Shown here piece after piece: positions 92 to 53,318 of a stretch of 53,631 nucleotides of DNA. The stretch is from Candidatus Ancillula kalotermitis (GTDB taxonomy: Bacteria > Actinomycetota > Actinomycetes > Actinomycetales > Bifidobacteriaceae). Position numbers and translations under genes: made by a program. Under the pieces are notes generated by a model that saw only the letters and a list, made by a program, of their open reading frames with translations, did not search any database and was not told the DNA's origin. The first letter of the stretch is position 1, and each line of letters begins with the position of its first letter. The stretch spans positions 1 to 53,631 of the forward strand of contig JAISRT010000041.1 of the NCBI GenBank assembly GCA_031273495.1. Reading direction: 5' to 3'.

Positions 92-250
92 ATTCTCGGG
101 ACAAGCCCAAGAATGACAGGAGACGTCAAGCCCAGGGGTGACAGGAGACGTCAAGCCCAGGGGTGACCGGAGACGTCAAGCCCAGGGGTGACAGGAGACG
201 TCAAGCCCAAGAATGACAGGAGACGTCAAGCCCAGGGGTGACAGTAATGA
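92..250. repeat. Repeat cluster A: terminal hairpin module plus 25-bp tandem repeat (about 5.7 copies, 103-244)
   Basis: Unit AAGCCCA(GGGG/AGAA)TGACAGGAGACGTC repeats at 103, 128, 153, 178, 203 and 228. 92-114 is the minus-sense hairpin ATTCTTGGG-CTTGT-CCCGAGAAT. Confidence 0.9.
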
Positions 251-281
251 GGGGTAATATGTCATCTTTGACTACAAGTCG

Positions 282-290
282 TGCTATACT
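282..290 (+). promoter_or_regulatory. Extended -10 box TGCTATACT upstream of the GT2 gene
   Basis: The 6-nt spacer GATGAA is followed by ATA 297, which is in frame with the GT2 ORF. Confidence 0.6.
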
Positions 291-377
291 GATGAAATAG
301 GTATATTAACATTATTCGACTATCTGCTCATTGTTATTGGGCTGTTTGGGTTCTGCTACCAATTTTTCTGCATTATC

Positions 378-1565
378 GTGGGCTGGTTCGGCAAGCCTCT
401 GGTATACCCTGACATCCCGCCTAGGCGGATATGCGCGATAATCTCCGCTAGAAATGAGTCTGCAGTTATAGGCAATCTGATTGACTCGCTCAACAGCCAA
501 GAGTATGACAAGGACTTTCTTGATGTGTGGGTGTGCGCAGACAACTGCACTGACTCAACTGCCCAAATATGCCGCGACAAAGGTGCATATGTCGTTGAGC
601 GCTTTAATCAAGAGATGATCGGGAAGGGGTATGCTCTAAGTTATCTCTTCAACAATATCCGGAAGGGGCTCTTCGGCGAGTCAGAGTTCACGAGTAGCAA
701 TCCTGCAGAGCTAGCGAAGCGGACCGCGCAGTATGAGGCATTTCTAGTCTTGGATGCCGACAACATTCTGGAACCTGATTACGTTAAGGAGATGAACAAG
801 GTATTCTCAGACTCTAACCGTGTAGTCACCAGCTACCGCAACTCGAAGAACTTCAATTCGAACTGGATCTCCTCTGGCTCAGCACTATGGTTTGTCCGCG
901 AGTCGAGGCTCTTGAATAACTCTCGGTCTATCTTCGGGGCAAGTTGCCACGTCGGAGGCACTGGGTTTATGTTCGCACGTTCGATTATGGAGCGCAATGA
1001 CGGGTGGAAGCATCATCTCTTGACCGAGGACCTTGAGTTCACTATGGACTGCGTGTTGCATGGTGACAAAGTGGCGTATTGTGGGACTGCAGTGCTGTAT
1101 GACGAGCAGCCAGTGACATTTTCGCAGTCTTGGAGGCAACGTTTGCGGTGGTCGAAAGGGTTCTTGCAAGTCTTCAGTCACTACGGCCCCAAACTCATCC
1201 GACAAGCGTTTAGTCGGGGTGACTTTTCTTGTGTGGACTTGACGATCTTAATTTTCCCGTGGATATTGATCAGCATTATACGCATTCTAATCGGACTACT
1301 GTATGTCCTGTTAGGGTTTGTCTCGTTTGGCTCGCAGTTGAACTCAGTCAGTCAGTCTGTCTTTACCATGGTGTTGGGGTCACTGTTCTTGATGTGCATC
1401 GCTGCGCTGACGGTCCTGATTGAGGGGAAGAAAATTGGAGCATCGCGCCTCGAACTTCTGGGCTACGTGATATCCTTCCCGCTCTTCATCCTCAGCTACA
1501 TCCCAATCTCATTTTACGCAATTTTCTCCAAGGTGGAATGGAAGCCGATTGAGCATGGCAACTGA
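378..1565 (+). CDS. Family-2 glycosyltransferase, membrane-embedded (processive synthase-like)
   Basis: 395-aa ORF with GT-A motifs (ISARNES, LDADN) and QRLRWSKG, the Q(R/Q)xRW motif of processive GT2 enzymes. Several C-terminal TM helices. The 27 in-frame codons upstream (297-377) encode a TM helix but contain no ATG/GTG/TTG (see findings). Confidence 0.85.
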   Translation: MGWFGKPLVYPDIPPRRICAIISARNESAVIGNLIDSLNSQEYDKDFLDVWVCADNCTDSTAQICRDKGAYVVERFNQEMIGKGYALSYLFNNIRKGLFGESEFTSSNPAELAKRTAQYEAFLVLDADNILEPDYVKEMNKVFSDSNRVVTSYRNSKNFNSNWISSGSALWFVRESRLLNNSRSIFGASCHVGGTGFMFARSIMERNDGWKHHLLTEDLEFTMDCVLHGDKVAYCGTAVLYDEQPVTFSQSWRQRLRWSKGFLQVFSHYGPKLIRQAFSRGDFSCVDLTILIFPWILISIIRILIGLLYVLLGFVSFGSQLNSVSQSVFTMVLGSLFLMCIAALTVLIEGKKIGASRLELLGYVISFPLFILSYIPISFYAIFSKVEWKPIEHGN

Positions 1566-3156: not shown

Positions 3157-3159
3157 AAA

Positions 3160-11298: not shown

Positions 11299-11321
11299 AA
11301 AATGTCTAAGAGTCAAAAAGA

Positions 11322-11405
11322 GTTACTCCGTTAGGGGGTGTTCGCGAAAAGAACTACTCCATCAAGGGGCATTCGCGAAAAAAAGTGTTACTCCATTAAG
11401 GGGCC
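11322..11405. repeat. Tandem repeat of ~31-34 bp, about 2.6 copies (GTTACTCC-RTYAAGGGG-(C/T)RTTCGCGAAAA)
   Basis: TACTCC recurs at 11324, 11355 and 11389. The last copy merges into element H. Confidence 0.8.
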
Positions 11406-11508
11406 ACGACCCCCCACCACCCATGTGGCCAGTGTAGCGCAAAATGGTGGCATCAAGGTGCGGAAAGTGCAGCGTGGTTAATAAGTGCGAATCTTATGTT
11501 TGAGTGAA
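11400..11508 (+). repeat. Element H copy 1 (~105-nt dispersed non-coding element)
   Basis: About 80% identical by hand alignment to 35389-35492. Shared blocks: GGGGCCACGRCCCCCCACCACCCA, GGCCAGTGTAGC, TCAAGGTGC, AGTGCA, GTGGTTAATAAGTGCG, GAGTGAA. Confidence 0.8.
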
Positions 11509-11598: not shown

Positions 11599-11943
11599 GT
11601 GTACGATGATAAAAATGGTCAATGGCAAGTGAACGCAAAGTGTCGCGATTATGTTGCCGATTTGTTTTTCCCCGTTGGGTCATCGGAACTTGCGCAACAG
11701 CAGACCATGGAGGCGAAAAAGGTGTGTTCAACGTGCGAAGTGCGGCTCGAATGCCTTGAGATGTCGTTAAGAACGCGCCGTGATACTGGAATTTGGGGCG
11801 GTGCGACCGAACAGGAACGCAAAGAGATGATTAGGCATTTTCATGTGCAAAAACCTAACTCGAACAATAAAGCGTCGAAAACGATTGTTGACACTGAGTA
11901 TTATGATGACATTATGGACTATATAAATCTAGGCAAACTCTAG
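11599..11943 (+). CDS. whiB: WhiB-family Fe-S transcription factor
   Basis: 114 aa. Four Cys in WhiB spacing (C..., CSTC, EC) followed by GIWGG. GTG start lies 6 nt after TGCTATACT. Confidence 0.85.
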   Translation: MYDDKNGQWQVNAKCRDYVADLFFPVGSSELAQQQTMEAKKVCSTCEVRLECLEMSLRTRRDTGIWGGATEQERKEMIRHFHVQKPNSNNKASKTIVDTEYYDDIMDYINLGKL

Positions 11944-12609: not shown

Positions 12610-13218
12610 ATGAGTAACGCGAAGGATGAAATCGGTTATCTAGATTTCGAGTTGCCAAAAGATATTGCAGTGCACACTGGCATTTCGGAAACTAAATCTG
12701 CGGCATTGGTGACTTCTATTAATGATATTGGCGTTCTAGCAGCACTTTGCGTGGTGAACGAAATTGAGGCAGTAATTATGCCTAGCGGTGTTTTCGGCAC
12801 AGTAGCATTTCTCCATGAGCTTAAAGATGGTGCACCCGAAAAAGCGGTCACAAAAATTACTCTAGCAGTCGATGGTCTTGACGCAGTTCTTGTTCAGTAT
12901 CGGTTCGAACGAATGGAGGCCAAACTGTATACAAAAGGTGAATTCGTTGAAGATTTGGTGCCCACTGTGGTTGTCGGCAATTTTTCTGAAGTCGCAGAAG
13001 ATGCTCTAATTGGCGAGATTGACCTCTACGACCTCATGAAAACTGGTAGTGCAAAGGTTGATGCCAACCACGCCTTGCGCAATCTGCCGTCTAACTTTGT
13101 GCCGAAGAAATATCAGCGCGGTGCGGAACGAACGTCAGGTAATTTCAACGCGTTCCCGACCTTCGCGATGCCAAAAGATGTCGCGCTCCAGACATTGAAG
13201 AGATTCGAGAATGTGTGA
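12610..13218 (+). CDS. Hypothetical acidic cytoplasmic protein
   Basis: 202-aa ORF with an AGGAGG SD 7 nt upstream. No motif I recognise. Its stop overlaps the GTG of the next gene. Confidence 0.6.
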   Translation: MSNAKDEIGYLDFELPKDIAVHTGISETKSAALVTSINDIGVLAALCVVNEIEAVIMPSGVFGTVAFLHELKDGAPEKAVTKITLAVDGLDAVLVQYRFERMEAKLYTKGEFVEDLVPTVVVGNFSEVAEDALIGEIDLYDLMKTGSAKVDANHALRNLPSNFVPKKYQRGAERTSGNFNAFPTFAMPKDVALQTLKRFENV

Positions 13219-14342
13219 ATAAGTTCTCTAAAATAGCATTGCCTCTCTTCGTCTTTGCGTTGGCGTTTTTGGGGATAGCAGTAGCAACTTTTGCAGTCTT
13301 GAGCACTCCGAACGAAGAAGAGAAACTTGAAATCCTAGTGCCTGACGGTATACCGCTTGCGAGTTTCGCTGGGTTTGCGCAGTCGGAGTCTGGTGTAGCT
13401 GCTACTCAACTGAAAGACGGCGTTTTTCCTTTTTCTGACGAGATGAACGCACTACTGGGGAAAAAGACTAGTTTGAGAATACTTAACGGTGCGGACCAAC
13501 TCTCGGCAGCGATGATAGACAAACCTAAAGCGGCAGTAGTTCCTTTGAGTATGGCGGCGCGGTTTTTCCACTCTGACGGCTATAAAATAATGCACATTGC
13601 GTCATTCGGGCTCAATGAGATTGTCGGGAACACTGAGGTTCAAGGTATGGGTGAGCTTGTCGGGAAAAAGGTCTACAGCTTCGCGAAAAATGACATCCCC
13701 GGTCTGGTTTTGCGTACTCTTATACGTGAGGACGGCGGTAAGGTCAATGAGTTGGCTGATGATAATGATGTCCTTGACCCGTCGGCAGTCAACATTCTTG
13801 AGTTTAATGATGCCCAGTCCGCAGGCGCCGCGAAGTTAAAAAGCCAGGATGCCGCAGATGTCTTCGCGTTTTTGCCTGAACCGGTGGCAACTAGTATTGC
13901 AGAGAAGTCCGATGGCAGCTTGAAGGTCACCGACCCGCAGCAGTTCTGGAAGCGTTTGTTTCACACCGACCAGCCCTACCCGCAGTCAGCATTAATAATC
14001 CGTAAAGACATCGCGGAAAGTGCTGGCTACGCTGAGACTTTTTCGGTTTTGTGCCTCGGAATGGGTTTGAGTAGTCAACTGGCATCTGAAGACGTCGACA
14101 AGCTCGTGGAGATTATGCGCGGTGACTTTAACTCGACATCATTTGCAAATGCGGGGGCAGTGAAGTTGGCGATACGTTCAGGACGCATTCCGCAGTCAGA
14201 CGGTTCAACACTGCGCCCCGAGATGAGAAGTAGTGTGCTCGCATTCCTAAAAACCTTGGCATTAACTAGCGAGCAGCCTGATAAAGTCCTAGGTGGTGAC
14301 GTGCCAGATGAGTCAATCTTCGCGGACCTACAGCAAAAGTAG
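13215..14342 (+). CDS. Putative membrane-anchored ABC substrate-binding protein (NMT1/THI5-like, tentative)
   Basis: 375 aa with an N-terminal TM anchor, then a periplasmic-binding-protein-like alpha/beta sequence. Family assignment rests on context with the downstream permease and is not verified. Confidence 0.55.
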   Translation: MNKFSKIALPLFVFALAFLGIAVATFAVLSTPNEEEKLEILVPDGIPLASFAGFAQSESGVAATQLKDGVFPFSDEMNALLGKKTSLRILNGADQLSAAMIDKPKAAVVPLSMAARFFHSDGYKIMHIASFGLNEIVGNTEVQGMGELVGKKVYSFAKNDIPGLVLRTLIREDGGKVNELADDNDVLDPSAVNILEFNDAQSAGAAKLKSQDAADVFAFLPEPVATSIAEKSDGSLKVTDPQQFWKRLFHTDQPYPQSALIIRKDIAESAGYAETFSVLCLGMGLSSQLASEDVDKLVEIMRGDFNSTSFANAGAVKLAIRSGRIPQSDGSTLRPEMRSSVLAFLKTLALTSEQPDKVLGGDVPDESIFADLQQK

Positions 14343-15124: not shown

Positions 15125-15375
15125 TGATGGATCCAGCGCATCGTGGGACAAGCCCACCCACCATGTCACCCTTGGCTTTATGCCGAGGGTCCATAATGGT
15201 ATGACTGACGCGTGGATCCAGCGCAGCGTGGGACAAGCCCGCGCCTGCCCTTGGCTTTATGCCGAGGGATGACAGTAAGGGTCAGTGTGTCACCCTTGGC
15301 TTTATGCCACGCTACGCTGGGATGACAGGGGACGTGGTGTTTGTGTCACCCTTGGCTTTATGCCGAGGGTCTATG
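15125..15375. repeat. Repeat cluster B (REP/BIME-like modules)
   Basis: Contains four CCTTGGCTTTATGCC modules, three with the full hairpin (two are ACCCTTGGC-TTTAT-GCCGAGGGT at 15168 and 15348). Also GGGACAAGCCC modules and a CACGCTACGCTGGG module. Directly follows the permease stop. Confidence 0.9.
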
Positions 15376-15458: not shown

Positions 15459-16721
15459 ATGGGACTATTGGATAGATTTGAAAAAGGTGTTGAAGGCGCA
15501 GTTAACTCCGTCTTCTCGAAGATTGGCTCGCATGAATTGCGTCCAGTTGATTTTATATTGGCTCTGAATGAGCATATGGACAACCACTCGACGAGCATTA
15601 AGAATAACCGAAAAGTTGCTCCAAACTCATACACGATATTCTTATCTACGCCTGACTTTGACCGCATCGAGACTTGGGATCCTGTCGCGTTTGCCGATGA
15701 ACTTGCCCAGAACTTGACCGAACATGCAAAAGCAGAGCAGTTTGAACTATTAGGAGACGTCGTCGTGTCGTTTGAGGAGAATGTACAAAACCAGGCAGGG
15801 GAGTATCAGATAAATTCAGAAGAGGTTGCGATGGAGTCTCCGATACCTGTTGATGCTATCAAACCAGTAGTCGGACAGGAGTTGCCTTCCGCATTGAGCG
15901 CAGGTGTGCCCGCAAGTCAAGCACCCGAGGAAAATGCTGACGCCAACTTGCCATACTTAGAGATTGAAGGGCAGAAATACTTCCTGACGAAACCCACAAT
16001 GGTGCTAGGGCGCGGGTCCGACTGTGACATAATTCTTGAGGACACGTCCGCTTCTCGGCGCCATCTTGAGCTCCGTAGAACGCCAACTGGCACAATCGCC
16101 TCGGACCTCCAGTCGACGAATGGCATCTTCATTGAGGGCAACAAGACTGGTGCGGCAACACTAATCGACAGGAACACTATAACTGTGGGCAAGACTGTGA
16201 TGATTTACCGTGAGGCACCCGCAACTCTTAATGCACCCGCACCTGCGACGCCTAATGTGGCAGCACTTGCAGAACAACCAGTGGCTGCTCAAACTCCTGG
16301 CTCTACGCCCGCTAAGTCATCACTCGCTGCCATGGCGCAACCGACACAGCAGCCAGTGGCACCGCAACAGCCAGTGCAACAGCCAGTAGCGCAACCCGCA
16401 CAGCAACCAGTGGCACAACCAGTGCAACAGCCCGTAGCGCAATCACCCGCACAGCAACCAGTGGCACAACCAGCGCAACAGCCCGTAATGCAGCCAATGA
16501 CACCGCAACAACCAGCGCAACAGCCGATAGCGCAGCCGCTGGCACAACAACCCGTAGCATCGCAATCAGCGTTAGGATCTACATTTTCCTCGCCAAGCGC
16601 GCCGCAATATGGGAACAGTTACGCTCCTGCACCTAGCCCTCCGCCCGCATCGCCTACCCAAGTTCCTCAACCCAATCCGTTCGACGAGCTTAACCTTTCT
16701 GAGCCGATGCCAAAACAGTAG
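15459..16721 (+). CDS. fhaA: FhaA-like FHA-domain protein with a long Pro/Gln-rich C-terminal tail
   Basis: N-terminus MGLLDRFEKGVEGAV is FhaA/DUF3662-like. FHA core is GRGSDCDIILEDTSASRRHLEL...STNGIFIEGN. ATG lies 6 nt after TGCTACACT. Confidence 0.85.
   Translation: MGLLDRFEKGVEGAVNSVFSKIGSHELRPVDFILALNEHMDNHSTSIKNNRKVAPNSYTIFLSTPDFDRIETWDPVAFADELAQNLTEHAKAEQFELLGDVVVSFEENVQNQAGEYQINSEEVAMESPIPVDAIKPVVGQELPSALSAGVPASQAPEENADANLPYLEIEGQKYFLTKPTMVLGRGSDCDIILEDTSASRRHLELRRTPTGTIASDLQSTNGIFIEGNKTGAATLIDRNTITVGKTVMIYREAPATLNAPAPATPNVAALAEQPVAAQTPGSTPAKSSLAAMAQPTQQPVAPQQPVQQPVAQPAQQPVAQPVQQPVAQSPAQQPVAQPAQQPVMQPMTPQQPAQQPIAQPLAQQPVASQSALGSTFSSPSAPQYGNSYAPAPSPPPASPTQVPQPNPFDELNLSEPMPKQ
16330..16560 (+). 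repeat. Imperfect in-frame tandem repeats encoding (Q-Q-P-V-A-Q-P-x)n in fhaA
   Basis: CAACAGCCAGT(G/A)GC(A/G)CAACC-type units recur about nine times. Confidence 0.85.
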
Positions 16722-22314: not shown

Positions 22315-22546
22315 TACTTGTGTCATCTTTGGCTTTATGCCGAAGATCCATAATGGTATGACAGTACGCGTGGATCCTCGGGACAAGCCCAAGGATGACA
22401 TGGGACAGACAAGCCCAAGGATGACATGGGACAGACAAGCCCGCGCCTGCCCTTGGCTTTATGCCGAGGGATGACATGGGACAGACAAGCCCAAGGATGA
22501 CATGGGACAGACAAGCCCAGGGGATGACAGTAGTGTGTGCGCCAAA
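22315..22546. repeat. Repeat cluster C inside the ABC operon 5' UTR
   Basis: Contains hairpin ATCTTTGGC-TTTAT-GCCGAAGAT (22325-22347), 26-bp units GACAAGCCCAAGGATGACATGGGACA (x4) and one long module with CCCTTGGCTTTATGCCGAGGG. Flanked by GCGGTCACACA(G/A)GAAA(A)GGG at 22295 and 22547. Confidence 0.9.
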
Positions 22547-25895: not shown

Positions 25896-25900
25896 CAGTT

Positions 25901-26170: not shown

Positions 26171-26190
26171 CGCACTAGGATGACAAGCAA

Positions 26191-27648
26191 GTGCGAATGT
26201 GCTACAATACTGATATTAAGGTTGAGGCTTACGAGCTAGCATTGGGCAACGTTGACGCGTTGGATGTTTTTTTGCGTCTCCGAAGTGTTGATTCGCATTG
26301 CTTTATATTGGAGTCTCTTGAGGGCGCACACTGGAGTTTTATCGGCTGGTACCCCATTCTCGAAATCACACTCCGCAATGGACATTTCTTGCAGAAGAAC
26401 TTAAAGAGTGGCGTGATGGAAGTTGACATTCAGACTGACGCACCCAAACAGTTGCTCCAACAAGTGCTTGACGATTTTCACTGCACGCCATCTGATCTGG
26501 AAAGTTTAACAAATATCTCCGAGCTCCCTCCGTTCACGGGCGGTCTGATGGGGTATTTTAGCTACGACTATATTAAGTATGCCGAGCCGACTTTGCGGCC
26601 ATTTTTCGAGCGGATGAAGGACACTGAGCGGTTTAATGACTTCGACTTGATGCTGTTTAACAATGTTATCGCGATTAACAACAACACGCAGAAGATGGTG
26701 ATTATCCACAACTCGTATGATGACACACCGTTCGATTATAAGCAGGTCTACAATACTGTGACATCTGCCCCGAAGTATAGTATGCAGGCATTAGAGATTC
26801 TTGAGGACCCCGATTTCATGTTCAACGAGCAGCAGTGGGGTGAAATTGTAGACAAAGCGCAGGAGCACATACAGCAAGGCGACATCTTCCAGGTAGTGCT
26901 CTCGAATCGGATGCAAGCGCGCGCTGAGGGAACACTTTTTGATGCCTACCGCGAGATGCGCGCCAAGAATCCGTCACCTTATATGTTTTACCTCAACTCT
27001 GACGAGCTCGAGATTGCGGGGTGCTCTCCGGAAACGCTGACGTCTTTGAGGCGTGACGGGCGTGAGGGGAACATGGTGGCTCGGACATTCCCACTTGCGG
27101 GGACGAGGCCACGCGGAGCGACCGCAGAAGAGGATGCACGTATTGAAGAGGAGTTGTTGAGCGACGAGAAAGAGCGTGCTGAGCACAATATGTTGGTTGA
27201 CTTGGGGCGTAATGACATCGGCAGAATTAGTAAAATCGGGTCAGTTGAGGTCGAGGACTATATGTCAGTATCAAGGTTTTCACATGTCATGCACATTGGC
27301 TCGAAGGTGAAGGGCATTCTTGAGGACGGACTTTCGGCACTTGACGTTATTGAGTCAGTTTTGCCCGCTGGAACACTCTCTGGTGCACCCAAAATCCGCG
27401 CTTGTGAGATTATTGACTGCCTGGAAGGCGACAGTCGCGGGATTTACGGTGGGTGTCTCGGTTATCTTGGTCTGGACGGTCAGATGGATATGTGTATAAC
27501 AATTCGGACAATCTACAAAAAGGGTGGCTATGTCTACGCGAGAAGTGGTGCCGGCATCGTTATGGATTCTAACGCGCGTTCAGAATACGTCGAGACAATC
27601 AATAAGATTAAGTCAAGCACTTTGGCTCTCGGGTTGGTGGTCAAATGA
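26191..27648 (+). CDS. Chorismate-utilising enzyme, anthranilate/aminodeoxychorismate synthase component I (TrpE/PabB family)
   Basis: 485 aa with motifs GDIFQVVLS, SPSPYMFY, GTLSGAPK and GGCLGY. The start is uncertain: GTG 26191 and ATG 26197 overlap the promoter box at 26200-26208. ATT 26215 or TTG 26242 are more plausible. Confidence 0.8.
   Translation: MRMCYNTDIKVEAYELALGNVDALDVFLRLRSVDSHCFILESLEGAHWSFIGWYPILEITLRNGHFLQKNLKSGVMEVDIQTDAPKQLLQQVLDDFHCTPSDLESLTNISELPPFTGGLMGYFSYDYIKYAEPTLRPFFERMKDTERFNDFDLMLFNNVIAINNNTQKMVIIHNSYDDTPFDYKQVYNTVTSAPKYSMQALEILEDPDFMFNEQQWGEIVDKAQEHIQQGDIFQVVLSNRMQARAEGTLFDAYREMRAKNPSPYMFYLNSDELEIAGCSPETLTSLRRDGREGNMVARTFPLAGTRPRGATAEEDARIEEELLSDEKERAEHNMLVDLGRNDIGRISKIGSVEVEDYMSVSRFSHVMHIGSKVKGILEDGLSALDVIESVLPAGTLSGAPKIRACEIIDCLEGDSRGIYGGCLGYLGLDGQMDMCITIRTIYKKGGYVYARSGAGIVMDSNARSEYVETINKIKSSTLALGLVVK
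26200..26208 (+). promoter_or_regulatory. Extended -10 box TGCTACAAT for the trpE/pabB-like gene
   Basis: Spacer ACTGAT, then in-frame ATT 26215. Confidence 0.6.
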
Positions 27649-33520: not shown

Positions 33521-33650
33521 GTGTGTCATCTCCTGACACACCGCACCCCTCATGTCATCCCAGCGTAGCGTGGCATAAAGCCAAGGGCAGGCGCGGGCTT
33601 GTCCGCCTCATGTCATCCTTGGGCTTGTCCCGAGGATCCATACGCCGTGT
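33521..33650. repeat. Repeat cluster E
   Basis: Contains palindrome GTGTCA-TCTCC-TGACAC, a long module with GCATAAAGCCAAGGGCAGGCGCGGGCTTGTC, and terminal hairpin ATCCTTGGG-CTTGT-CCCGAGGAT (33615-33637). Lies between convergent fusA and glnA. Confidence 0.9.
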
Positions 33651-36325: not shown

Positions 36326-37794
36326 ACAATAATAACGCGGTAATTGCAAACGAGCTGAAATTAAAGCGCACTCTGAAGGCTAGACACCTCAATATGATCG
36401 CGCTCGGCGGCTCAATAGGGACTGGACTGTTCTTGGCGTCAGGTGGATCAATCGCTCAAGCTGGACCGGGTGGGGCACTTTTAGCCTACACTCTAATTGG
36501 CGTTATGGTCTACTTCTTAATGACTTCACTAGGCGAGATGTCCACGAATATGCCGACGTCTGGCTCGTTTTCCGAATATGCGAAGCGGTATTTCGACAAG
36601 TCGCTCGGATTTGCGTCAGGCTGGAACTACTGGTTTAATTGGGCAATCACACTAGCGTCCGAGCTGGCTGCAGCGGCCGTGATAATGAAATTCTGGTTCC
36701 CTGACGTGCCGGGCTGGATTTTTAGCCTACTGTTCTTGTTCATCATCTTGGCGTTAAACATCATCTCTGTCCGTGGGTTTGGGGAGTCCGAATACGTCTT
36801 CTCATCGATAAAAGTCGTCACGGTTATAGTGTTCATAATCGTCGGTGCTGGAATAATACTGGGGCTCTGGGGTGGCGAAGGGCACACTGTTGGCTTCGAG
36901 AACTGGTTTATAGGCGATGCGCCCTTCCATGACGGTGTTCTGGGGGTCCTTGCGATAATGATGATTGCGGGGTATTCATTTCAAGGCACTGAACTACTGG
37001 GAGTTGCCGCAGGTGAGACTGACGACCCGAAGAAGAATGTGCCCAAAGCAGTCCGTCAAATATTCTGGCGCATAGTGTTGTTCTATATGCTCTCAATATT
37101 CGTGATTGGCACCCTAATACCATACACTAATGAGAACCTTAGCCTTGAAGATGTCGCGGTGTCGCCCTACACATTAGTCTTCTCGCAAATTGGCATCCCT
37201 GCTGCGGCGTCAGTCCTGAACGCAGTGATCCTAATCGCGGTGCTCTCTGCGGGGAACTCCGGTACTTATGCCTCAACTAGAATGCTGTTTGCGCTGGCGG
37301 AGCAGGGTGAAGCGCCCAAAGTGTTCAGTCAGGTGTCCAAGAACGGAGTCCCTGTTCCCGCGCTGCTGCTCACTATTGCGGTCGGCGGTGCTAGTTGTCT
37401 GAGCTCAATAGTTGGGGACGGCGAAATGTATAACCTACTGCTCAACATTTCGGCGCTGGCAGGGTTCATTACGTGGTTTATCATCGCACTGAGCCATTAT
37501 CGGTTCCGCAAAGCCTTCATTAAGCAGGGTAAAAGCCTGGACGATCTGCCATTCAAAGCCAAGTTCTTCCCAGTCGGTCAGCTCCTCGCACTGTTTCTCT
37601 GTGGGTTCGTCATCATCGGGCAAGGTTTTTCGGCATTTTCTGATACAGGCGTGGATTGGAACGCGCTACTTTCGACATATATTGGCGTCCCAGTATTCTT
37701 CGTAGTCTACTTTGCCCACAAGTTTAAGCATAAAACTCGGCTTGTGCGGCTTGAAGAAATGGATCTCGACGGGATCGATAACATACTCAAGTAA
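36322..37794 (+). CDS. APC-family amino acid permease
   Basis: 490 aa, about 12 TM segments. N-terminal LKRTLKARHLNMIALGGSIGTGLF is typical of amino-acid permeases. Overlaps the rluB stop by 4 nt. Confidence 0.85.
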   Translation: MNNNNAVIANELKLKRTLKARHLNMIALGGSIGTGLFLASGGSIAQAGPGGALLAYTLIGVMVYFLMTSLGEMSTNMPTSGSFSEYAKRYFDKSLGFASGWNYWFNWAITLASELAAAAVIMKFWFPDVPGWIFSLLFLFIILALNIISVRGFGESEYVFSSIKVVTVIVFIIVGAGIILGLWGGEGHTVGFENWFIGDAPFHDGVLGVLAIMMIAGYSFQGTELLGVAAGETDDPKKNVPKAVRQIFWRIVLFYMLSIFVIGTLIPYTNENLSLEDVAVSPYTLVFSQIGIPAAASVLNAVILIAVLSAGNSGTYASTRMLFALAEQGEAPKVFSQVSKNGVPVPALLLTIAVGGASCLSSIVGDGEMYNLLLNISALAGFITWFIIALSHYRFRKAFIKQGKSLDDLPFKAKFFPVGQLLALFLCGFVIIGQGFSAFSDTGVDWNALLSTYIGVPVFFVVYFAHKFKHKTRLVRLEEMDLDGIDNILK

Positions 37795-37798
37795 AAAG

Positions 37799-37807
37799 TG
37801 CTATACT
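37799..37807 (+). promoter_or_regulatory. Extended -10 box TGCTATACT, leaderless lipoprotein gene
   Basis: Spacer ATTGCA, then ATG 37814. Confidence 0.7.
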
Positions 37808-37813
37808 ATTGCA

Positions 37814-38809
37814 ATGACCCAAGAACGATTTTTCACGCGCTCTAATAAAGCCGTTTGTGGTATATGTGCCGCAGTATGTATTTTGCTGACTTTAACGCTT
37901 TCGAGCTGTATTGACTATTCCGCAAAGGACACCGAAAAAGTGGAGTCGAATTCAAATGTGCTACCCAGTCTAAAAGTTGAGTTTGACGGCAAGAATGAGC
38001 CTAAAGTGGAATATGATGCTACTGCCACGATTCCAGTTGAAGTGATTGATGAAAATGCTGACGTCGCTCGGAATGTCTCAAAAGTGGTCAGCCATGGTGA
38101 AGGCACAATCCAGAATGGGCAGACTGTCGCGCTAGAATATTTGTATTATTCGATGCCGGGGTTCTCTAAACAGTTTTCAACTTGGGACGAGGGCGCGAAG
38201 GTGCAGAAGTTGACGGTCAATAAAGATGACCAGGACTCAAATTCACTCTCAAAGTTGCTGTTAGGGCTTGGGAAAGGTGCTATCGTTGCGGTTGCCACTC
38301 CAGGATTTGATATGCAGACCCAGAAACTTGACCTATCTGGCACCAACTACACTGTGCAGATACTCATTGTCGACGACTTCAAGAATCCAACCACGAAAGC
38401 GGAGGGCACACCTGTCGATGATGCCTCATTAGATCCCAAGTTGCCTAAAGTCACGCTCGCTACGGACGGGACACCTTCGATTAAAATACCTTCTAGCTTC
38501 ATTATGCCATCTTCGAGTGTGAGTGAACAGCTTAAAAAGGGCGCAGGGCCGAAGTTGGACAAGGTTTCAAACATCTCGTTCGCGTATTCGGCATTTGACG
38601 CAGACACTTCGGAGTTGATTCAGTCCACTTGGGACACGAAAATACCGTTGACTGCGACGCTAGGGCAGACCAATATGGCGTGGCAGACTGCGCTTGAGCA
38701 CGCATCAGTCGGCGATCAGTATTTAATTATTGTGCCAAAAGGGGGTGAAAACAGCACTTCGAAGGACTTGAACCTGATCTTTGTTGTCGATGTGCTTGAT
38801 GAAATCTAG
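37814..38809 (+). CDS. Lipoprotein with two degenerate FKBP-like repeats (tentative)
   Basis: Signal peptide with lipobox LTLSSC. Two similar halves resemble FKBP-type PPIase folds, but I cannot confirm the catalytic residues. ATG 37814 lies 6 nt after TGCTATACT. Confidence 0.6.
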   Translation: MTQERFFTRSNKAVCGICAAVCILLTLTLSSCIDYSAKDTEKVESNSNVLPSLKVEFDGKNEPKVEYDATATIPVEVIDENADVARNVSKVVSHGEGTIQNGQTVALEYLYYSMPGFSKQFSTWDEGAKVQKLTVNKDDQDSNSLSKLLLGLGKGAIVAVATPGFDMQTQKLDLSGTNYTVQILIVDDFKNPTTKAEGTPVDDASLDPKLPKVTLATDGTPSIKIPSSFIMPSSSVSEQLKKGAGPKLDKVSNISFAYSAFDADTSELIQSTWDTKIPLTATLGQTNMAWQTALEHASVGDQYLIIVPKGGENSTSKDLNLIFVVDVLDEI

Positions 38810-39831
38810 TGTTAAGTAAAATTATTTCTGGTGTGCTTGTAATCGCGGGGTTACTTGTCATGATTTTTGCCATAACGTTCTCCAATAACGAATCGGCAAC
38901 TCAGAATATAGTTAAGGCGGAGCTAGCAATCGATAAGGCATCACCAACTATTGTGATTACTGACACTGGTGTGCTTGAAGCGATGAATCCATCAATCTCT
39001 GCTGTAGTTTCAACAGACTTCGCGGCGTCACTAAATGTTGCGGTCGGTGCATCGTATGACGTCAACGCCTGGATAGAGCAGGTCAATACTATCAATATTA
39101 CGGGGATTTCACCGCAGGGTAAACTTCTGCTCCAAAATAGGGACAACTTAAGAGACGAAGTTCGCGGTACATCCTATTTGTCGGACATCTGGAATTTTCA
39201 GAACACCCAGAAGAACGAGGCAAAAGTAGACTGGGTAAGGCCGAATGACAATAACTACTCGATAATATTTGTGATCACCCCTGACGACACTGCATTTCAA
39301 AGTGGAACTGCTACGATCACGTTCAGCTGGTTAAATAAAAGCAATAGTGCATTTCTGGTGACTGGAGTTGTGATCTCTATCTTCCTATTCGTCTCGGCGT
39401 TATTGCTAGTTGTGTTGAGGCGACGCCAGAATAAAAACGGTTCACATTTCGGGGACGTTAAGCGACTGAAAGATATTGTGGTCACCAAAAACAAGTTCTC
39501 ACTGCCACAGACTGAGCAGATTCAATCGGTGAAAGACTTCATGCAGAACGAGAAAAGTGCAGGCACTAACTCATCTTCACTTCTAACGACGGCAACACTT
39601 GGGCAGAAGCACACTGCGTCCTATTTCACATCAGTCCTCGACGGCAACACTGAGCAGAATGCAACCCCAGAAAGTAACGCGTTCCAGAGCAACAGCCTTC
39701 CTATTGACTCAGCGTCCTTGAGCTTTAAGACTTCGAGACTCATTGTTGAAGATGAGAATAAGACAACCCGAAAGCAACTGCGAAAACGGAAAGACGGTAG
39801 TAGTTCAAAATGGAGAAAGGGACGCAAATGA
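38809..39831 (+). CDS. Hypothetical bitopic membrane protein
   Basis: 340 aa: N-terminal TM anchor, ~170-aa outside domain, second TM (FLVTGVVISIFLFVSALLLVVL), then a Ser/Thr/Asn-rich basic tail. GTG start overlaps the upstream stop. Confidence 0.55.
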   Translation: MLSKIISGVLVIAGLLVMIFAITFSNNESATQNIVKAELAIDKASPTIVITDTGVLEAMNPSISAVVSTDFAASLNVAVGASYDVNAWIEQVNTINITGISPQGKLLLQNRDNLRDEVRGTSYLSDIWNFQNTQKNEAKVDWVRPNDNNYSIIFVITPDDTAFQSGTATITFSWLNKSNSAFLVTGVVISIFLFVSALLLVVLRRRQNKNGSHFGDVKRLKDIVVTKNKFSLPQTEQIQSVKDFMQNEKSAGTNSSSLLTTATLGQKHTASYFTSVLDGNTEQNATPESNAFQSNSLPIDSASLSFKTSRLIVEDENKTTRKQLRKRKDGSSSKWRKGRK

Positions 39832-40850
39832 AGAAGTTTTGCCTACTGTCAGCACTTTGCCTGGTTTTGAGCCTCAGTGTGCCCTTTGGTCTGAGTAGTT
39901 GTGGGTCTGACGAGAGCGCGATTAATGACACTAAAGTGAAGGGAACTGAGAGCGGTGGTGAAAAGAATGTTCCAGTCCTTCAAGTCGAGCAGATTACGCC
40001 AATACTCAGTAAAATAGTTGCCAAGATTGATGAGGCTGCCGCGCAGAAAAACCTCAACCTATTAGATGAGCGCGTCCAAGGGGCGGAAAAGCCTTTGATG
40101 ACGACAAAACTGCGTATTAACGCTAACGACCTGCAAGTTATCCCCTCGATTAAGCAGTATATAGTAACTAACACTAAGTCATGGCCGAGAACGATATTCC
40201 TGATTGGTGAAGATGCATCGACTAAATTGGCGAATAAGCTATATGTGCTCCAGCAGAATAATGTGCGCGATAATTATAAGGTCTCCGCTAGTGTTACACT
40301 TTTTGACTCACAACAACTTCCCAAGTTCGACGTCCCGAATCAGGGGAGCGCTAATGTTAAACTGACCGAAACGGGGTATGAGTCTTCAATCCCGGACATA
40401 TTGACTAAATACTCTGACCTGTTAAGCAACGGGACCGACTCACATTATGCAAACGACTTCGCGATAGACCAGCTCCAGACGCAGATTCGCTCGGCGCATC
40501 AAATTGCCAACGATCAGCTGTCACAGCTTGGGGGGCAACAATCCGAAGTCTTTAACTTTGTGCCCGAAACATTTTCCGCACTGAAAACTTATGATGGTGG
40601 CGCGCTCTGCGTGGCGGAGTTCAAGTCAACTTGGGTGCGCAGTCTGCCAGGGAATTTCTACGCGACGACAGCTACTGAGGCGGAGAAAACACTCTTCGGG
40701 GACAGCCAACGGGGGCACACTATTGAAGCGGACTATATCACTGAAGTTCTAATGTATATCCCCAAGAAAGTGGACAACGCGAAGAATGCGTCAAGTTCAC
40801 TAAAAGTCTTCGGTGCAGAGCGCTTTCCTGTTGAAGTCCGTTCGCGCTAA
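39828..40850 (+). CDS. Hypothetical lipoprotein
   Basis: MKKFCLLSALCLVLSLSVPFGLSSC is a signal peptide plus lipobox. GAGAAAGGGA SD precedes ATG 39828. Overlaps the upstream stop by 4 nt. Confidence 0.65.
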   Translation: MKKFCLLSALCLVLSLSVPFGLSSCGSDESAINDTKVKGTESGGEKNVPVLQVEQITPILSKIVAKIDEAAAQKNLNLLDERVQGAEKPLMTTKLRINANDLQVIPSIKQYIVTNTKSWPRTIFLIGEDASTKLANKLYVLQQNNVRDNYKVSASVTLFDSQQLPKFDVPNQGSANVKLTETGYESSIPDILTKYSDLLSNGTDSHYANDFAIDQLQTQIRSAHQIANDQLSQLGGQQSEVFNFVPETFSALKTYDGGALCVAEFKSTWVRSLPGNFYATTATEAEKTLFGDSQRGHTIEADYITEVLMYIPKKVDNAKNASSSLKVFGAERFPVEVRSR

Positions 40851-50324: not shown

Positions 50325-50325
50325 T

Positions 50326-50505: not shown

Positions 50506-50538
50506 TAGAAAAGTTATCTATAGGTAAAGGAGAAAGAA

Positions 50539-51291: not shown

Positions 51292-51319
51292 CTAGGCGGC
51301 AGGAAAAGGAAGGTATAGT

Positions 51320-52627
51320 ATGCTAAAAGGATTCTTCAACGCGTTTAAGACACCAGATCTTCGCAAGAAGTTATTGTTCACTATTGGCATTATTGTTATC
51401 TTCCGCCTTGGCTCATTTATCCCGACGCCTGGTGTTAACTACTCTGCAGTAAAGGAGTGCACCGCTGGTGATGTTAATGACGGCTTAATGGGCATGATTA
51501 ACTTGTTCTCTGGCGGCGCGCTGTTGCAGTTGAGTGTTTTTGCGCTCGGAATTATGCCATACATCACTGCGTCGATCATTATACAGTTATTGCGCGTTGT
51601 GATTCCTAGGTTTGAAGCCTTGAATAAAGAAGGGCAGTCGGGCCAGGCAAAATTGACTCAATATACACGCTACGTCACCGTGGGGCTCGCGATTTTGCAG
51701 TCTACCACTATAATTACTACCGCCATTTCAGGGCAACTATTCGGCGGAAAAACGGGTGCTTGCGAGTCGGTCATCACGCACAAGGACAATATAATGACGC
51801 TCGTTATAATGATTATTGCCATGACTGCGGGGACCTCTCTTATCATGTGGTTTGGTGAGCTTATTACTGAGAACGGTGTAGGAAACGGTATGTCCATTTT
51901 GATATTCTCGTCAATCTGCGCTAACTTCCTGCCTAACCTCTGGTCAATCGGACAGACTAATATTATGAAGTTTGTCATGGTTGTAGCGATTGTTATTCTT
52001 ATCATCACGATTGTTACATTTGTGGAGAACTCTCAGCGACGGATTCCTGTGCAGTATGCGCGTCGTCAAGTTGGGTCGCAAACACTAGGCGGGCAGTCAA
52101 CTTATTTGCCGATCAAGATTAACATGTCGGGTGTTATACCGATTATCTTTGCGTCCTCGATCCTCGCGGTTCCTGGACTTATTGCGCAGTTCGGAGACCC
52201 GAATTCGGAAGTTGTTCAATGGATTCAAACGCACGTTTCCCAGCAGCAAAGCCCAGTGCATATGACGCTATACGCTTTGCTTATCATCTTCTTCTGCTTC
52301 TTCTACACTTCAATCACATTTAATGTCGTCGAGGTGGCAGAAAATATGCGAAACCAGGGTGGGTTCGTCCCAGGAATACGCGCAGGTAAGCCGACTTCGA
52401 ACTATCTACGCTATATTCTACACCGTTTGAATACTGTTGGGTCAATCTACCTTGCACTCATCGCGCTAATACCGACTATTGTGTTCCTAGTTGCTGGTCT
52501 AAGTCAGAGCCTACCGTTCGGAGGCACCACTATTCTCATCATCGTCGGCGTCGGGTTGGACACGGTGAAGCAGATTAACTCTCAACTGCAGCAGCATCAC
52601 TACGACGGGTTCCTCGGGCAGAGATAG
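51320..52627 (+). CDS. secY: Preprotein translocase subunit SecY
   Basis: 435 aa, 10 TM segments, with LFSGGAL...SVFALGIMPYITASII. Confidence 0.95.
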   Translation: MLKGFFNAFKTPDLRKKLLFTIGIIVIFRLGSFIPTPGVNYSAVKECTAGDVNDGLMGMINLFSGGALLQLSVFALGIMPYITASIIIQLLRVVIPRFEALNKEGQSGQAKLTQYTRYVTVGLAILQSTTIITTAISGQLFGGKTGACESVITHKDNIMTLVIMIIAMTAGTSLIMWFGELITENGVGNGMSILIFSSICANFLPNLWSIGQTNIMKFVMVVAIVILIITIVTFVENSQRRIPVQYARRQVGSQTLGGQSTYLPIKINMSGVIPIIFASSILAVPGLIAQFGDPNSEVVQWIQTHVSQQQSPVHMTLYALLIIFFCFFYTSITFNVVEVAENMRNQGGFVPGIRAGKPTSNYLRYILHRLNTVGSIYLALIALIPTIVFLVAGLSQSLPFGGTTILIIVGVGLDTVKQINSQLQQHHYDGFLGQR

Positions 52628-52650
52628 CCCGCACACACCCCGCGACGCCG

Positions 52651-52860
52651 TGTCATCCACGCACGCACACTGCCCCCTCATGTCATCCTTGGGCTTGTCT
52701 GTCCCATGTCATCCCTCGGCATAAAGCCAAGGGCAGGCGCGGGCTTGACGTCCCATGTCATCCCTCGGCATAAAGCCAAGGGCAAGCGCGGGCTTGACGT
52801 CCCATGTCATCCCTCGGCATAAAGCCAAGGGCAGGCGCGGGCTTGTCCCGAGGATCCATA
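52651..52860. repeat. Repeat cluster F including a 49-bp tandem repeat x3 (52703-52849)
   Basis: CCCATGTCATCCCTCGGCATAAAGCCAAGGGCAGGCGCGGGCTTGACGT starts at 52703, 52752 and 52801. Directly follows the secY stop. Confidence 0.95.
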
Positions 52861-53174
52861 TTGGCGCGTTTGCCCCTCCGCGCCGCAACGTCTCCCGCGG
52901 CGGTTTATCGTCACGGTTCCGTTTTGCATTCTCTCTAAATTCGTAGCCTTTAACTCTAAGAAATTTTTCTATCAAAAAATGACGATTGCGCTCCTAAACT
53001 CGCGCTAAAGCACTCATTAAGGTGCTCGTGTATCTTTTTGACTTAACGAAACAATTTCTAAGAGTGAAAAGTCCACTTCATAAAAGAGAGAATACGCAAA
53101 TGTCACACCTCCTCAAAACCACCACGCTCGCCGTTGCTCCGCTAGGCGTCACGTTCCCGCGCACACACGCCCCC

Positions 53175-53318
53175 CATGTCATCCTTGGGCTTGTCCCGAG
53201 GATCCATCGCGCGCACTCCGCCATTGTGGACCCTCGGCATAAAGCCAAGGGTGACACTAGAGAGCGCGGGTGTGTTCAATAGATCCAGCGTAGCGTGGCA
53301 TAAAGCCAAGGGTGACAG
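53175..53318. repeat. Repeat cluster G
   Basis: Contains terminal hairpin ATCCTTGGG-CTTGT-CCCGAGGAT (53181-53203), two GGCATAAAGCCAAGGGTGACA modules and one CCAGCGTAGCGTGG module. Confidence 0.9.

Follow-up and report, generated by a model that had tools for sequence, protein, structure and literature searches.

The window (the whole stretch of DNA analysed) is one contig of 53.6 kb. This is the sequence read for this organism, and the copy numbers of arrays are given as they stand in a single assembly. The SecY protein is 77% identical to that of Ca. Ancillula and 82% identical to those of uncultured relatives, and the window also carries whiB and an operon that runs from fhaA to the kinase gene. 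The host is a termite-gut, Ancillula-like member of the Bifidobacteriaceae (Actinomycetota).

Seven intergenic regions, named A to G, are built of common modules (Table 1), as had been described from the letters of the window in a preceding sequence-only reading. They occupy 2.8% of the 53.6 kb, and the modules are seen nowhere else in the window: TGTCATYCTTGGGCTTGTC has 15 matches and CTCGGCATAAAGCCAAGG has 16, each against 0.02 expected by chance. A covariance model, which that reading had proposed as a check, matches 13 full units and five nested hairpin bodies, all inside the seven clusters and none in genes. A scan for hairpins with a 9-bp stem and a 5-nt loop finds every variant at the position and strand reported before: 92(-), 15168(+), 15348(+), 22325(+), 22374(-), 25872(+), 25972/26025/26078(-), 33615(+), and 53181(+). 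Two hairpins are additional to that list, one at 53230(-) and one, imperfect, at 25919(-).

The flanking genes are also those named previously: the GT2 gene is downstream of cluster A, and the genes for an ABC permease, a Ser/Thr kinase, PadR, EF-G, and SecY are upstream of clusters B–F. The cluster positions stand with two corrections, as cluster A really starts at 89 and cluster D runs to about 26186. The description of the clusters as much more GC-rich than their surroundings was overstated; they are moderately richer (50–61% against a background of 49%), and cluster D is not enriched.

Table 1. Positions and composition of the seven repeat clusters in the window.
Feature	Positions	Strand	Description
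Cluster A	89-243	-	Upstream of GT2 glycosyltransferase gene (378-1565)
A, full unit	89-118	-	TGTC-ATTCTTGGG-CTTGT-CCCGAGAAT-CTC
A, truncated units		-	Five, 25 nt each (TGTCACCCCTGGGCTTGACGTCTCC), preceding the full unit
Cluster B	15129-15373	.	Begins 12 nt past the ABC permease stop codon
B, full units	15164-15193, 15344-15373	+, +	TTTAT loop
B, long nested form		-	Head-to-head dimer with 15164-15193
B, other units			Double-tagged unit; two more units with 10-nt ACGCTRCGCT-type substitution
Cluster C	22321-22529	-	Between kinase gene and ABC ATPase gene
C, head-to-head heterodimer	22371-22400, 22321-22350	-, +	CTTGT loop (-) and TTTAT loop (+); 20-nt spacer
C, array		-	Four truncated units, one of them a long nested form
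Cluster D	25790-26186	+	Begins 3 nt past the padR stop codon
D, truncated units			Three, 26 nt each (100% identical), followed by the full unit
D, full unit	25868-25897		
D, inverted units	25916-26104		Four, TTTAT loop, 53-nt tandem array
D, 3' part			Three tag-proximal fragments (…GGATGACA) after the inverted array
Cluster E	33524-33640	+	34 nt past the fusA stop codon; convergent with glnA
E, mini-palindrome			TGTCATCTCCTGACA
E, truncated unit			Long nested form, AGCGTAGCGT variant
E, full unit	33611-33640		
Cluster F	52651-52858	+	23 nt past the secY stop codon; no inverted partner
F, fragment and truncated unit			Degenerate tag fragment; one 26-nt truncated unit
F, long nested forms			Three; 49-nt period, 96% matches; last complete through ...CCCGAGGATCCA
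Cluster G	53177-53317	+	Head-to-head heterodimer and extra inverted unit
G, heterodimer	53177-53206, 53227-53256	+, -	CTTGT loop (+) and TTTAT loop (-); 20-nt spacer
G, extra inverted unit	53281-53317		AGCGTAGCGT variant

At the contig edge, positions 1–20 are a partial copy of the 3' flank of the full unit of cluster A. The last fragment of cluster D provides ATGACA, the -35-like hexamer of a promoter-like site at 26180–26208.

Repeat units, dimers and arrays

The units are 30-nt imperfect palindromes with the structure TGTC-ATCCTTGGG-CTTGT-CCCGAGGAT-CCA, in which a 9-bp stem and a 5-nt loop are placed between an unpaired 5' tag (TGTC) and an unpaired tail (CCA). Two types are distinguished: one has the loop CTTGT with G-C as the top pair, and the other has the loop TTTAT with C-G as the top pair. 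The tag TGTC is seen in all 13 full units. The first stem pair is A-T in 12 of the 13, and the second is T-A in nine and C-G in four. The tail is CCA in 11 full units and CTC or CTA in the rest. A T-G stem pair is invariant in all 13 units of the window.

CGTC-tagged REPs were defined by the tag CGTC, often TGTC and also CCTC, stems of 8–9 bp starting from A-T, loops of 4–5 nt, and the tail CCA (Di Nocera, De Gregorio and Rocco 2013, BMC Genomics 14:522, PMC3733652). They are mostly head-to-head dimers, with heterodimers in CGTC-3; G-T pairs are frequent, and they have no dedicated transposase (PMC3733652). They abound in Alphaproteobacteria, of which they are typical. The seven clusters belong to this already described superfamily and are built of units of the family-3 type; this assignment, in preference to family 4, is made from the text and supplement of PMC3733652. 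The peptide VILGLVPRIH...DPRHKAKDD from the window parallels the CGTC-3 peptides VIAGLDPAIH...DARVKPAHD of R. palustris (PMC3733652, supplement). The REP/BIME-like interpretation proposed from the sequence holds, and CGTC-tagged REPs are the family that it had missed.

Head-to-head heterodimers of one CTTGT-loop and one TTTAT-loop unit are present in clusters B, C, D, and G, with the tags outside and spacers of 18–20 nt. Their predicted folds have energies of -35 to -57 kcal/mol and z-scores of -3.8 to -6.1 (C, D, and G on both strands, B on the + strand). The truncated-unit arrays and the long forms show no significant structure on folding. A whole dimer was copied between loci at least once, because clusters B and C have a common spacer; the 20-nt spacer of the cluster C dimer is homologous to that of cluster B.

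Head-to-tail arrays of truncated units, which are atypical for CGTC-tagged REPs, are seen in clusters A, C, D, E, and F. The array periods are 25/26, 49, and 53 nt, the copies within an array are 90–100% identical, and variants are specific to the cluster. The clusters grew by local tandem duplication. Two direct repeats of TGTCCC lie at a distance of 26 nt, TGTCCCA in the 5' flank and TGTCCCG at the junction of the loop and the stem, and slippage between them presumably generated the 26-nt arrays.

Other identifications fit less well. The tag of the REP/REPIN-RAYT group is GTAG, whereas it is TGTC here. The head-to-tail copies do not constitute a CRISPR array, having no unique spacers, and no cas domains were found in the window ORFs scanned. 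The units are not intrinsic terminators either: none is among the terminator-like sites, and they end in CCA without a run of T. An Rfam search of the window returns only three tRNAs, even at E ≤ 1.

Stem covariation and strand asymmetry

Compensatory changes had been noticed at stem positions 2, 3, 4, and 9. This covariation is confirmed in the window, and it is far wider in the units of other genomes. Of 39 hits listed in an unbiased scan of genomes, 28 are paired at all four free stem positions, and eight outer-stem types are represented. In two alignments, 99.1% and 98.2% of cells are paired and 4–5 pairs are changed on both sides, while slid controls are paired at 24–56%. None of 500 shuffles reaches the observed cells paired, cells changed on both sides, or covariation score; shuffles did reach the observed counts of both-side-changed pairs and of pair types, and, as a caveat of the covariation tool, related sequences can beat shuffles without structural constraint. 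In the dimers of clusters C, D, and G, the stems of the two partners differ and each is internally compensated.

The T-G pair had been taken as a sign of a strand-specific fold, either of RNA or of single-stranded DNA. The asymmetry itself is borne out in the window, and folding as single-stranded DNA gives -6.5/-7.1 kcal/mol for the tag strand against -4.5/-5.1 kcal/mol for the complement. The asymmetry does not track transcription, because six full units are on the + strand and seven on the - strand while the flanking genes are nearly all on the + strand. In alphaproteobacterial copies, the T-G position is C-G in 28 and U-G in 26, a biased split as the set was seeded with a TTGG pattern. The strand asymmetry is more readily explained by the recognition of single-stranded DNA or by a founder effect than by a role in RNA.

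A function at the RNA level could be considered as the main reason for the clusters, in which stem-loops at 3' ends terminate transcription or shield the upstream mRNAs from 3' exonucleases, and the covariation reflects selection on the RNA fold. Clusters start 3–34 nt past the stop codons of the permease, padR, fusA, and secY genes, the dimers of C, D, G, and B (+ strand) fold stably, and Di Nocera et al. read G-T pairs and the 3' location as hints of transcription (PMC3733652). In addition, terminator-like sites in the window are not enriched over the shuffled expectation, and the only convincing terminator is the one after glnA, 33798–33769(-), which was also the single classical terminator of the sequence-only reading. 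However, the hairpins are not followed by a T-tract, and the mixed orientation means that half of the units would have a C-A mismatch in RNA. The compensation maintains the hairpin of each unit, not the predicted long RNA helix between the arms; neither the truncated-unit arrays nor the long forms fold significantly, and no obvious RNA role can be assigned to the tag and tail, which are conserved and unpaired. As the main reason for the clusters, this function is possible, if somewhat on the unlikely side. Less likely still is that the compensation is a by-product of DNA mechanics, namely hairpin-templated repair or template switching with founder amplification, which needs no structural selection. 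The window variants are a few subtypes, each locally repeated, and the changes at stem positions 2–4 are all transitions, which can go via a G-T intermediate; the caveat on shuffles among kin sequences also applies here. Against this, at least eight outer-stem types are distributed over unrelated genomes with GC contents of 38 to 69% at 98–99% pairing, and they include transversions (GC, GG/CC, AC/GT). The T-G position was never repaired in the 13 of 13 window units, and the conservation of loop, tag, and tail while the stem varies is the signature of a recognised structure.

Distribution and proposed spread

Units identical over 30 of 30 nt are present in many alphaproteobacterial genomes among the matches listed. 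This identity is weak evidence for recent transfer, because the ATCC/GGAT unit type is the commonest. Matches are seen on 135 plasmids; with one exception, these belong to rhizobial genera or to related genera of Alphaproteobacteria, including genera where CGTC-3 was described. The related alphaproteobacterial units have the tag TGTC or CGTC. No other actinobacterium is among the matches listed in the genome scan, which is not evidence that other Actinobacteria lack the family. The covariance model has no unit match in about 90 kb from five related lineages, and this absence suggests a lineage-specific gain. On a second, independent contig (42.9 kb), a spurious ORF translates to both unit types.

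The window had been described as having no transposase gene, and a Pfam scan of 38 window ORFs finds neither Y1_Tnp nor any other transposase domain; NCBIfam was added for five ORFs that Pfam left unmatched, for two ribosomal genes, and for a 94-aa ORF that overlaps a tRNA gene. This accords with CGTC REPs having no known dedicated enzyme. The defining paper found no dedicated mobilising enzyme for the superfamily and left its mode of spread open (PMC3733652), and our literature search found no later paper naming a dedicated CGTC REP transposase. In the alphaproteobacterial loci examined, no transposase flanks the units; across these loci the neighbour genes have nothing in common except an LRR surface-protein family and include no candidate enzyme.

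The explanation we consider probable as a whole is that CGTC-3-type REPs were gained, locally amplified, and spread as non-autonomous hairpin elements. The gain would have occurred in the Ancillula-like lineage of Bifidobacteriaceae, probably horizontally from Alphaproteobacteria, in which the family is common; we infer the horizontal origin only from the distribution. The family would then have spread into intergenic regions just downstream of genes, presumably as non-autonomous elements. A trans-acting enzyme encoded elsewhere probably recognises the single-stranded DNA hairpins through the tag, stem, and tail. Such recognition would explain why the hairpin of the unit is maintained by compensation, and why the T-G asymmetry follows the tag strand and not the direction of transcription. 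As a side effect, the hairpins of transcribed dimers directly past stop codons could stabilise or end the upstream mRNAs. A narrower proposal, tentative and rather doubtful, has CGTC REPs passing from Alphaproteobacteria to a lineage of genome-reduced actinobacteria that live as endosymbionts in termite-gut flagellates, and multiplying there in recent times.

The remaining explanations are less probable. Binding platforms of the kind put forward for E. coli BIMEs, with double-stranded sites for host proteins such as gyrase, IHF/HU, or other nucleoid proteins, would suit the BIME-like mosaic of two unit types in alternating orientation and the position of the clusters between transcription units, at which supercoiling accumulates. 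Such platforms are improbable; both the covariation and the asymmetry of the strands indicate a folded single strand and not duplex recognition. Very improbable is the derivation of the dimers as MITEs from a DDE-type insertion sequence, with the 30-nt units as terminal inverted repeats. The dimers do resemble 80-nt elements with terminal inverted repeats of about 30 nt starting TGT...ACA, and the spacer is common to B and C, but no target-site direct repeats flank the dimers (C, D, and G) or the single units, no transposase is found in the window or flanking the alphaproteobacterial units, partnerless single units and head-to-tail arrays are present in A, E, and F, and each supposed terminal repeat forms a covarying hairpin of its own, the tag and tail of which are asymmetric. 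An assembly artefact, or a chimeric actinobacterial/alphaproteobacterial contig, deserves next to no credence: the contig starts and ends in repeats, and short-read assemblers can miscount tandem copies, but each of the seven loci is bounded on either side by unique actinobacterial sequence, the variants are particular to each cluster, the same units exist in independent public genomes, and the spurious ORF of the second contig translates to both unit types.

Comparison with known repeats and significance

CGTC-3 was described in Agrobacterium tumefaciens, Sinorhizobium meliloti, Bradyrhizobium, and Rhodopseudomonas palustris (PMC3733652). The window units share with it the TGTC/CGTC tag, the 9-bp stem opening with A-T, the 5-nt loop, the CCA tail, the head-to-head heterodimers, the G-T stem pairs, and the intergenic location between co-directional or convergent genes without a linked transposase. 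Copies in alphaproteobacterial genomes match them at 100% identity, and copies on plasmids of Rhizobium, Sinorhizobium, Shinella, and Agrobacterium at 86–97%. In contrast to CGTC-3, the host is an actinobacterium (Bifidobacteriaceae), most units belong to large mosaic clusters that include truncated units in head-to-tail arrays, and the nested long forms and the 10-nt ACGCTRCGCT substitution are absent from the other loci examined. In the 2013 survey, head-to-tail arrangements were negligible and clusters were chiefly in Neisseria and Wolbachia (PMC3733652). Neisseria dRS3 (CGTC-1) and Wolbachia CGTC-4 are superfamily members that also form large clusters, although they are other families, with an 8-bp stem and a 4-nt loop or other sequences. 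[quoted passage not shown]

The E. coli REP/BIME and the Pseudomonas REPINs, which are GTAG-tagged and mobilised by RAYT, are similar in being short imperfect palindromes with an unpaired tag, in having two unit types in inverted pairs able to fold as one long hairpin, in forming mosaic 3' intergenic clusters, and in their presumed recognition as single-stranded DNA. They differ from the window units in the tag and show no sequence similarity to them, and no RAYT flanked by CGTC-type units is found in the window or in the literature.

The survey of 2013 lists five host phyla, and Actinobacteria are not among them (PMC3733652). The present finding extends the host range to a phylum outside that list, with unusually dense clustering; if neither this nor what follows stood, it would be one more REP family in one more genome. 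In a genome nearly devoid of canonical terminators, the clusters are candidate mRNA 3'-end elements. The high density, in a small and eroded actinobacterial genome, of units identical to alphaproteobacterial ones, with none in the roughly 90 kb of related lineages, speaks for a family still able to invade and multiply. If a recent cross-phylum transfer were true, the family would still be mobile, its mobilising activity would have been either co-transferred or supplied by a widely conserved host enzyme, and a genome of roughly 1.5 Mb would be a tractable space in which to search for the enzyme of CGTC REPs.

The repeat units and their assembly into clusters

The modules described in the sequence-only reading are genuine repeats. 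TGTCATYCTTGGGCTTGTC is matched 15 times in the window with up to three mismatches, where chance would give 0.02 matches, and CTCGGCATAAAGCCAAGG is matched 16 times, again with 0.02 expected. The hairpin variants listed there were all recovered, at the same positions and on the same strands, by a blind scan for 9-bp stems with 5-nt loops. The scan added one hairpin, and an imperfect copy was picked up both by the covariance model and in the parsing of cluster D. The same layout is seen in each of the 13 full units: TGTC, then a stem of 9 bp closing around a loop of 5 nt, followed in 11 of the 13 by a CCA tail. Matches of the covariance model built from the units are confined in the window to the seven intergenic clusters (A–G) and none lies within a gene.

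The earlier REP/BIME-like reading is supported. These units belong to a known superfamily, the CGTC-tagged REPs defined by Di Nocera, De Gregorio and Rocco in 2013 (PMC3733652). According to that paper, the terminal CGTC is frequently TGTC, the unpaired tail is CCA, the stems are of 8 or 9 bp and nearly always start with complementary A-T residues, and the loops are of 4 or 5 nt. G-T pairs are common. Most elements are HH dimers, with heterodimers characteristic of CGTC-2 and CGTC-3, and they are located between co-directional or convergent ORFs (PMC3733652). The window units share all of these structural characters. In addition, CGTC-3 units of R. palustris translate as VIAGLDPAIH...DARVKPAHD (PMC3733652, supplement), and VILGLVPRIH...DPRHKAKDD of the window is the counterpart of these peptides. 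We assign the units to the family-3 type of CGTC REPs, with the choice between families 3 and 4 based on the text of the paper, its supplement and the host range.

All seven regions were parsed again after each cluster had been oriented. A cluster begins with n copies of TGTCATCCTTGGGCTTGTC plus a linker of 6–7 nt, and one complete unit, TGTCATCCTTGGGCTTGTCCCGAGGATCCA, terminates every head-to-tail array. Clusters B, C, D and G continue with 18–20 nt of spacer and then an inverted unit of the second type, which reads TGTCA(T/C)CCTTGGCTTTATGCCGAGG(A/G)TCCA on its own strand. The two units of a pair thus form a head-to-head heterodimer whose tags are outermost. The spacers of B and C are identical at 17 of 20 positions, which indicates that the whole dimer was copied between these two clusters. 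The long form is the body of a second-type unit, inverted and nested after TGTCATCC. The linker, TGTCCCA or CGTCCCA, resembles a tag plus a tail, and TGTCCC reappears 26 nt on at the junction of loop and stem (TGTCCCG). Repeats at this distance could plausibly serve as a substrate for slippage, by which the arrays would grow. In five units, the 10-nt direct repeat ACGCTRCGCT, or its close variant ACGATGCGCT, takes the place of two stem bases. The lost bases are GA (TC when read from the opposite strand), and the site of replacement coincides exactly with the stem position of the T-G pair.

The clusters had been described as much more GC-rich than their surroundings. They are richer (50–61%, against 49% in the remaining window and 38–49% in most other intergenic DNA), although not dramatically, and cluster D is not enriched. 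CRISPR arrays, intrinsic terminators, DDE-type MITEs and an assembly chimera were each rejected as readings of the clusters. The contig starts with GATTAGCGTAGATTCTC, which nearly duplicates the 3' end of the cluster A unit together with its flank, and the assembly therefore probably broke within a further copy of the repeat.

Repeats and other features of the window (array periods from Tandem Repeats Finder)
Feature	Position	Description
Cluster A	89-243	Tandem array, period 25 nt
Cluster B	15129-15373	
Cluster C	22321-22529	Tandem array, period 26 nt
Cluster D	25790-26186	Tandem arrays, period 26 nt (100% identical) and 53 nt (96% matches)
Cluster E	33524-33640	
Cluster F	52651-52858	Tandem array, period 49 nt, 96% matches
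Cluster G	53177-53317	
Additional hairpin	53230(-)	Blind scan
Imperfect copy	25919(-)	Cluster D
ACGCTRCGCT-type substitution	15135-15144, 15220-15229, 15309-15318, 33562-33571, 53287-53296	
Outer stems of dimer partners (C, D, G set)		ATCT/AGAT with ATCC/GGAT, internally compensated
Outer stems of dimer partners (C, D, G set)		ATTC/GAAT with ATCC/GGAT, internally compensated
Outer stems of dimer partners (C, D, G set)		ATCC/GGAT with ACCC/GGGT, internally compensated
Near copy at contig start	1-20	Resembles 84-103
Terminator of glnA	33798-33769(-)	
Second repeat family	53319-53631	Two copies of a module of ~150-200 nt; GC 55%
20-nt hairpin palindrome of the module, GGTCAAACTCGCTTGCGAGTTTGGCAA	53323, 53519	Lies in a 27-nt segment
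60-nt segment of the module	53420-53479 and 53572-53631	100% identical
Tandem copies of AAAAGAGTTACTCCGTTAGGGGGTGTTCGCG	11316-11411	Unit of 31-34 nt, three copies, mutual identity 68-77%
Coding tandem repeats, FhaA-like gene	16364-16509	Imperfect; periods 12, 24, 27 and 51 nt; local GC 59%, negative GC skew
Promoter-like site	26180-26208	ATGACA-17 nt-TACAAT, extended TG; score 10/12
ORFs without Pfam match	12610-14342 and 37712-40850	202, 375, 365, 340 and 346 aa

Folding and compensatory changes

A dimer is predicted to fold into one long hairpin, both as RNA and as DNA. The RNA folds lie between -31 and -57 kcal/mol, with z-scores of -3.8 to -6.1 for all but the minus strand of the B dimer (z -1.8). 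The G dimer, the sole dimer folded as DNA, reaches -20.4 kcal/mol (z -3.8). The outer stems of the partners in C, D and G differ from each other and each is compensated within itself. It is therefore the hairpin of the individual unit that is preserved, and not a helix between the arms.

A strand-specific fold had been proposed for the units. The tag strand of single units is indeed more stable as DNA, at -6.5 and -7.1 kcal/mol against -4.5 and -5.1 kcal/mol for the complement, because stem position 6 is a T-G pair. The asymmetry is not aligned with transcription, however. Six units lie on the plus strand and seven on the minus strand, beside genes that are almost all on the plus strand, and the asymmetry thus tracks the element.

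The compensatory stem changes noticed in the window are borne out in other genomes. One genome per species was scanned with TGTCANNNTTGGNNTTNTNCCGANNNTC, in which stem positions 2, 3, 4 and 9 were left free, and at least 39 matches were obtained at no fewer than 38 loci. Among the 39 matches listed, 28 are paired at all four free positions. In the remaining 11, pairing extends to one to three of them; nine of these 11 look like chance matches, and two (loci L015 and L021) are paired at three of four positions. The 28 fully paired matches among those listed comprise eight types of outer stem and four types of top pair, and several are the window unit over 30 of 30 nt. Their hosts are Alphaproteobacteria or unclassified Pseudomonadota with a GC content of 38–69%.

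In the mixed alignment, 99.1% of cells are paired and four pairs are changed on both sides. None of 500 shuffles reaches the observed number of paired cells, the number of cells changed on both sides, or the covariation score, and slid controls are 27–56% paired. For the number of pairs with changes on both sides and the number of pair types, the observed values are reached by 158 and 128 of the 500 shuffles, respectively. In 67 alphaproteobacterial units found by covariance-model search, 98.2% of cells are paired and five pairs show changes on both sides. At position 6, 28 of these units have C-G and 26 have U-G, a split biased by the TTGG pattern with which the set was seeded.

Gene ends, enzymes and neighbouring repeats

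Clusters start shortly after the stop codons of padR (3 nt), the permease gene (12 nt), secY (23 nt) and fusA (34 nt), in agreement with their placement behind these genes in the earlier reading. Terminator-like sites are not commoner than in shuffled sequence and the sole convincing one is that of glnA, which had already been singled out. Starts 3–34 nt past the stop codons make it plausible, as a prediction from sequence, that the clusters could act as mRNA 3' stabilisers or as terminators without a T-tract; the orientation of the units does not favor this. In E. coli, a REP very near a stop codon can reduce the expression of the upstream gene via ribosome stalling. Clusters B and D would, by analogy, be candidates for such an effect.

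The window appeared to contain no transposase gene, and this holds. No transposase or HUH domain is found by Pfam among its 38 ORFs, five of which have no Pfam match. NCBIfam, searched with these five together with two ribosomal genes and an ORF of 94 aa that overlaps a tRNA gene, gives weak lipoprotein-like matches only. The five ORFs look consecutive and none is nuclease- or transposase-like; one weakly matches the SCO2278-family lipoprotein model. Likewise, no candidate enzyme is seen beside the units at 30 alphaproteobacterial loci. The window is concordant with the literature here, as CGTC-tagged REPs have no known dedicated transposase (PMC3733652), and our literature search found no later paper naming an enzyme for them.

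Other repeats accompany the clusters. The family at the end of the contig is unrelated to the units and has no Rfam match. The AAAAGAGTTACTCCGTTAGGGGGTGTTCGCG copies lie in a 300-nt gap upstream of a whiB-like gene (11599–11943) and, judged from their arrangement, could be a regulatory repeat or an operator array. The coding repeats in the FhaA-like gene are probably a low-complexity linker. The promoter-like site, tied in score with six others and among the best in the 20–40 kb segment, lies immediately upstream of the anthranilate synthase gene and takes its -35 hexamer from the tag end of the REP fragment GGATGACA. As the annotated GTG start (26191) falls within this site, the gene probably begins further downstream.

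Distribution and host

Outside the window, the units are seen mainly in Alphaproteobacteria. A BLAST search of plasmids with the unit returns 135 records, all from Rhizobium, Sinorhizobium, Shinella and allied genera except one from Roseateles, and the matches listed lie under no annotated feature. A metagenome scan with the right-arm 18-mer gives 24 loci, among which only L053 and L063 carry genuine units. Neither is from this organism, and they hold exact counterparts of both window unit types. Viral contigs contain one chance match, no genuine unit and no long-form junction, and the exact ACGCTRCGCT motif is not found in any of 69 fetched loci. The repeats have no Rfam match at gathering thresholds or at E ≤ 1, and a literature search with the literal repeat sequence returned nothing relevant.

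Near the units at the 30 alphaproteobacterial loci, the sole recurrences are tadA synteny and a family of LRR surface proteins. This secreted leucine-rich-repeat family recurs in L006, L012, L016, L027, L031 and L053, which are MAGs of low-GC Alphaproteobacteria and related contigs, with some derived from rumen samples. The proteins share the conserved C-terminus RIYT.EEA...GN.F.LRYK. In L006, L016 and L027, the LRR gene starts ~20–25 nt downstream of a CGTC REP unit.

The window itself is actinobacterial, with a whiB gene and the operon fhaA-fhaB-PP2C-rodA-pbpA-kinase. The identity of its SecY is 82% with proteins of uncultured organisms, 77% with that of Candidatus Ancillula sp. and 66–70% with those of Bifidobacteriaceae MAGs. 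Look-ups of exact matches to the window proteins PadR, GlnA and SecY gave no recorded entry. Across the secY regions of five related lineages (~90 kb; SecY 76–82% identical), the covariance model with filters off finds no unit, where about a dozen clusters would be expected at the density of the window. A protein search with a REP-derived spurious ORF found one spurious ORF encoding both unit types on P0121, a second contig of 42.9 kb, and the repeats therefore extend beyond the window contig. After secY (52628–53631), the window has repeat clusters and an AT-rich stretch instead of adk. Among the loci of relatives, adk follows secY in L067 only, and L039, L041, L042 (Ancillula hodotermitis, GCA_031262545.1) and L068 each have a different downstream gene, which indicates that this junction is a rearrangement hot spot of the clade.

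Hosts of the Ancillula type are genome-reduced endosymbionts of termite-gut flagellates and acquire genes from co-resident symbionts; a paper on these flagellate endosymbionts does not mention such repeats. The route by which the units spread is one that we infer. CGTC-tagged REPs have been reported mainly from Alphaproteobacteria and from five phyla in all, with Actinobacteria not listed (PMC3733652). The host phylum thus appears to be new, as does the apparent lineage-specific gain. Also apparently new is the strongly clustered mosaic architecture, in which truncated units are arrayed head to tail and nested long forms and a 10-nt substitution allele occur.
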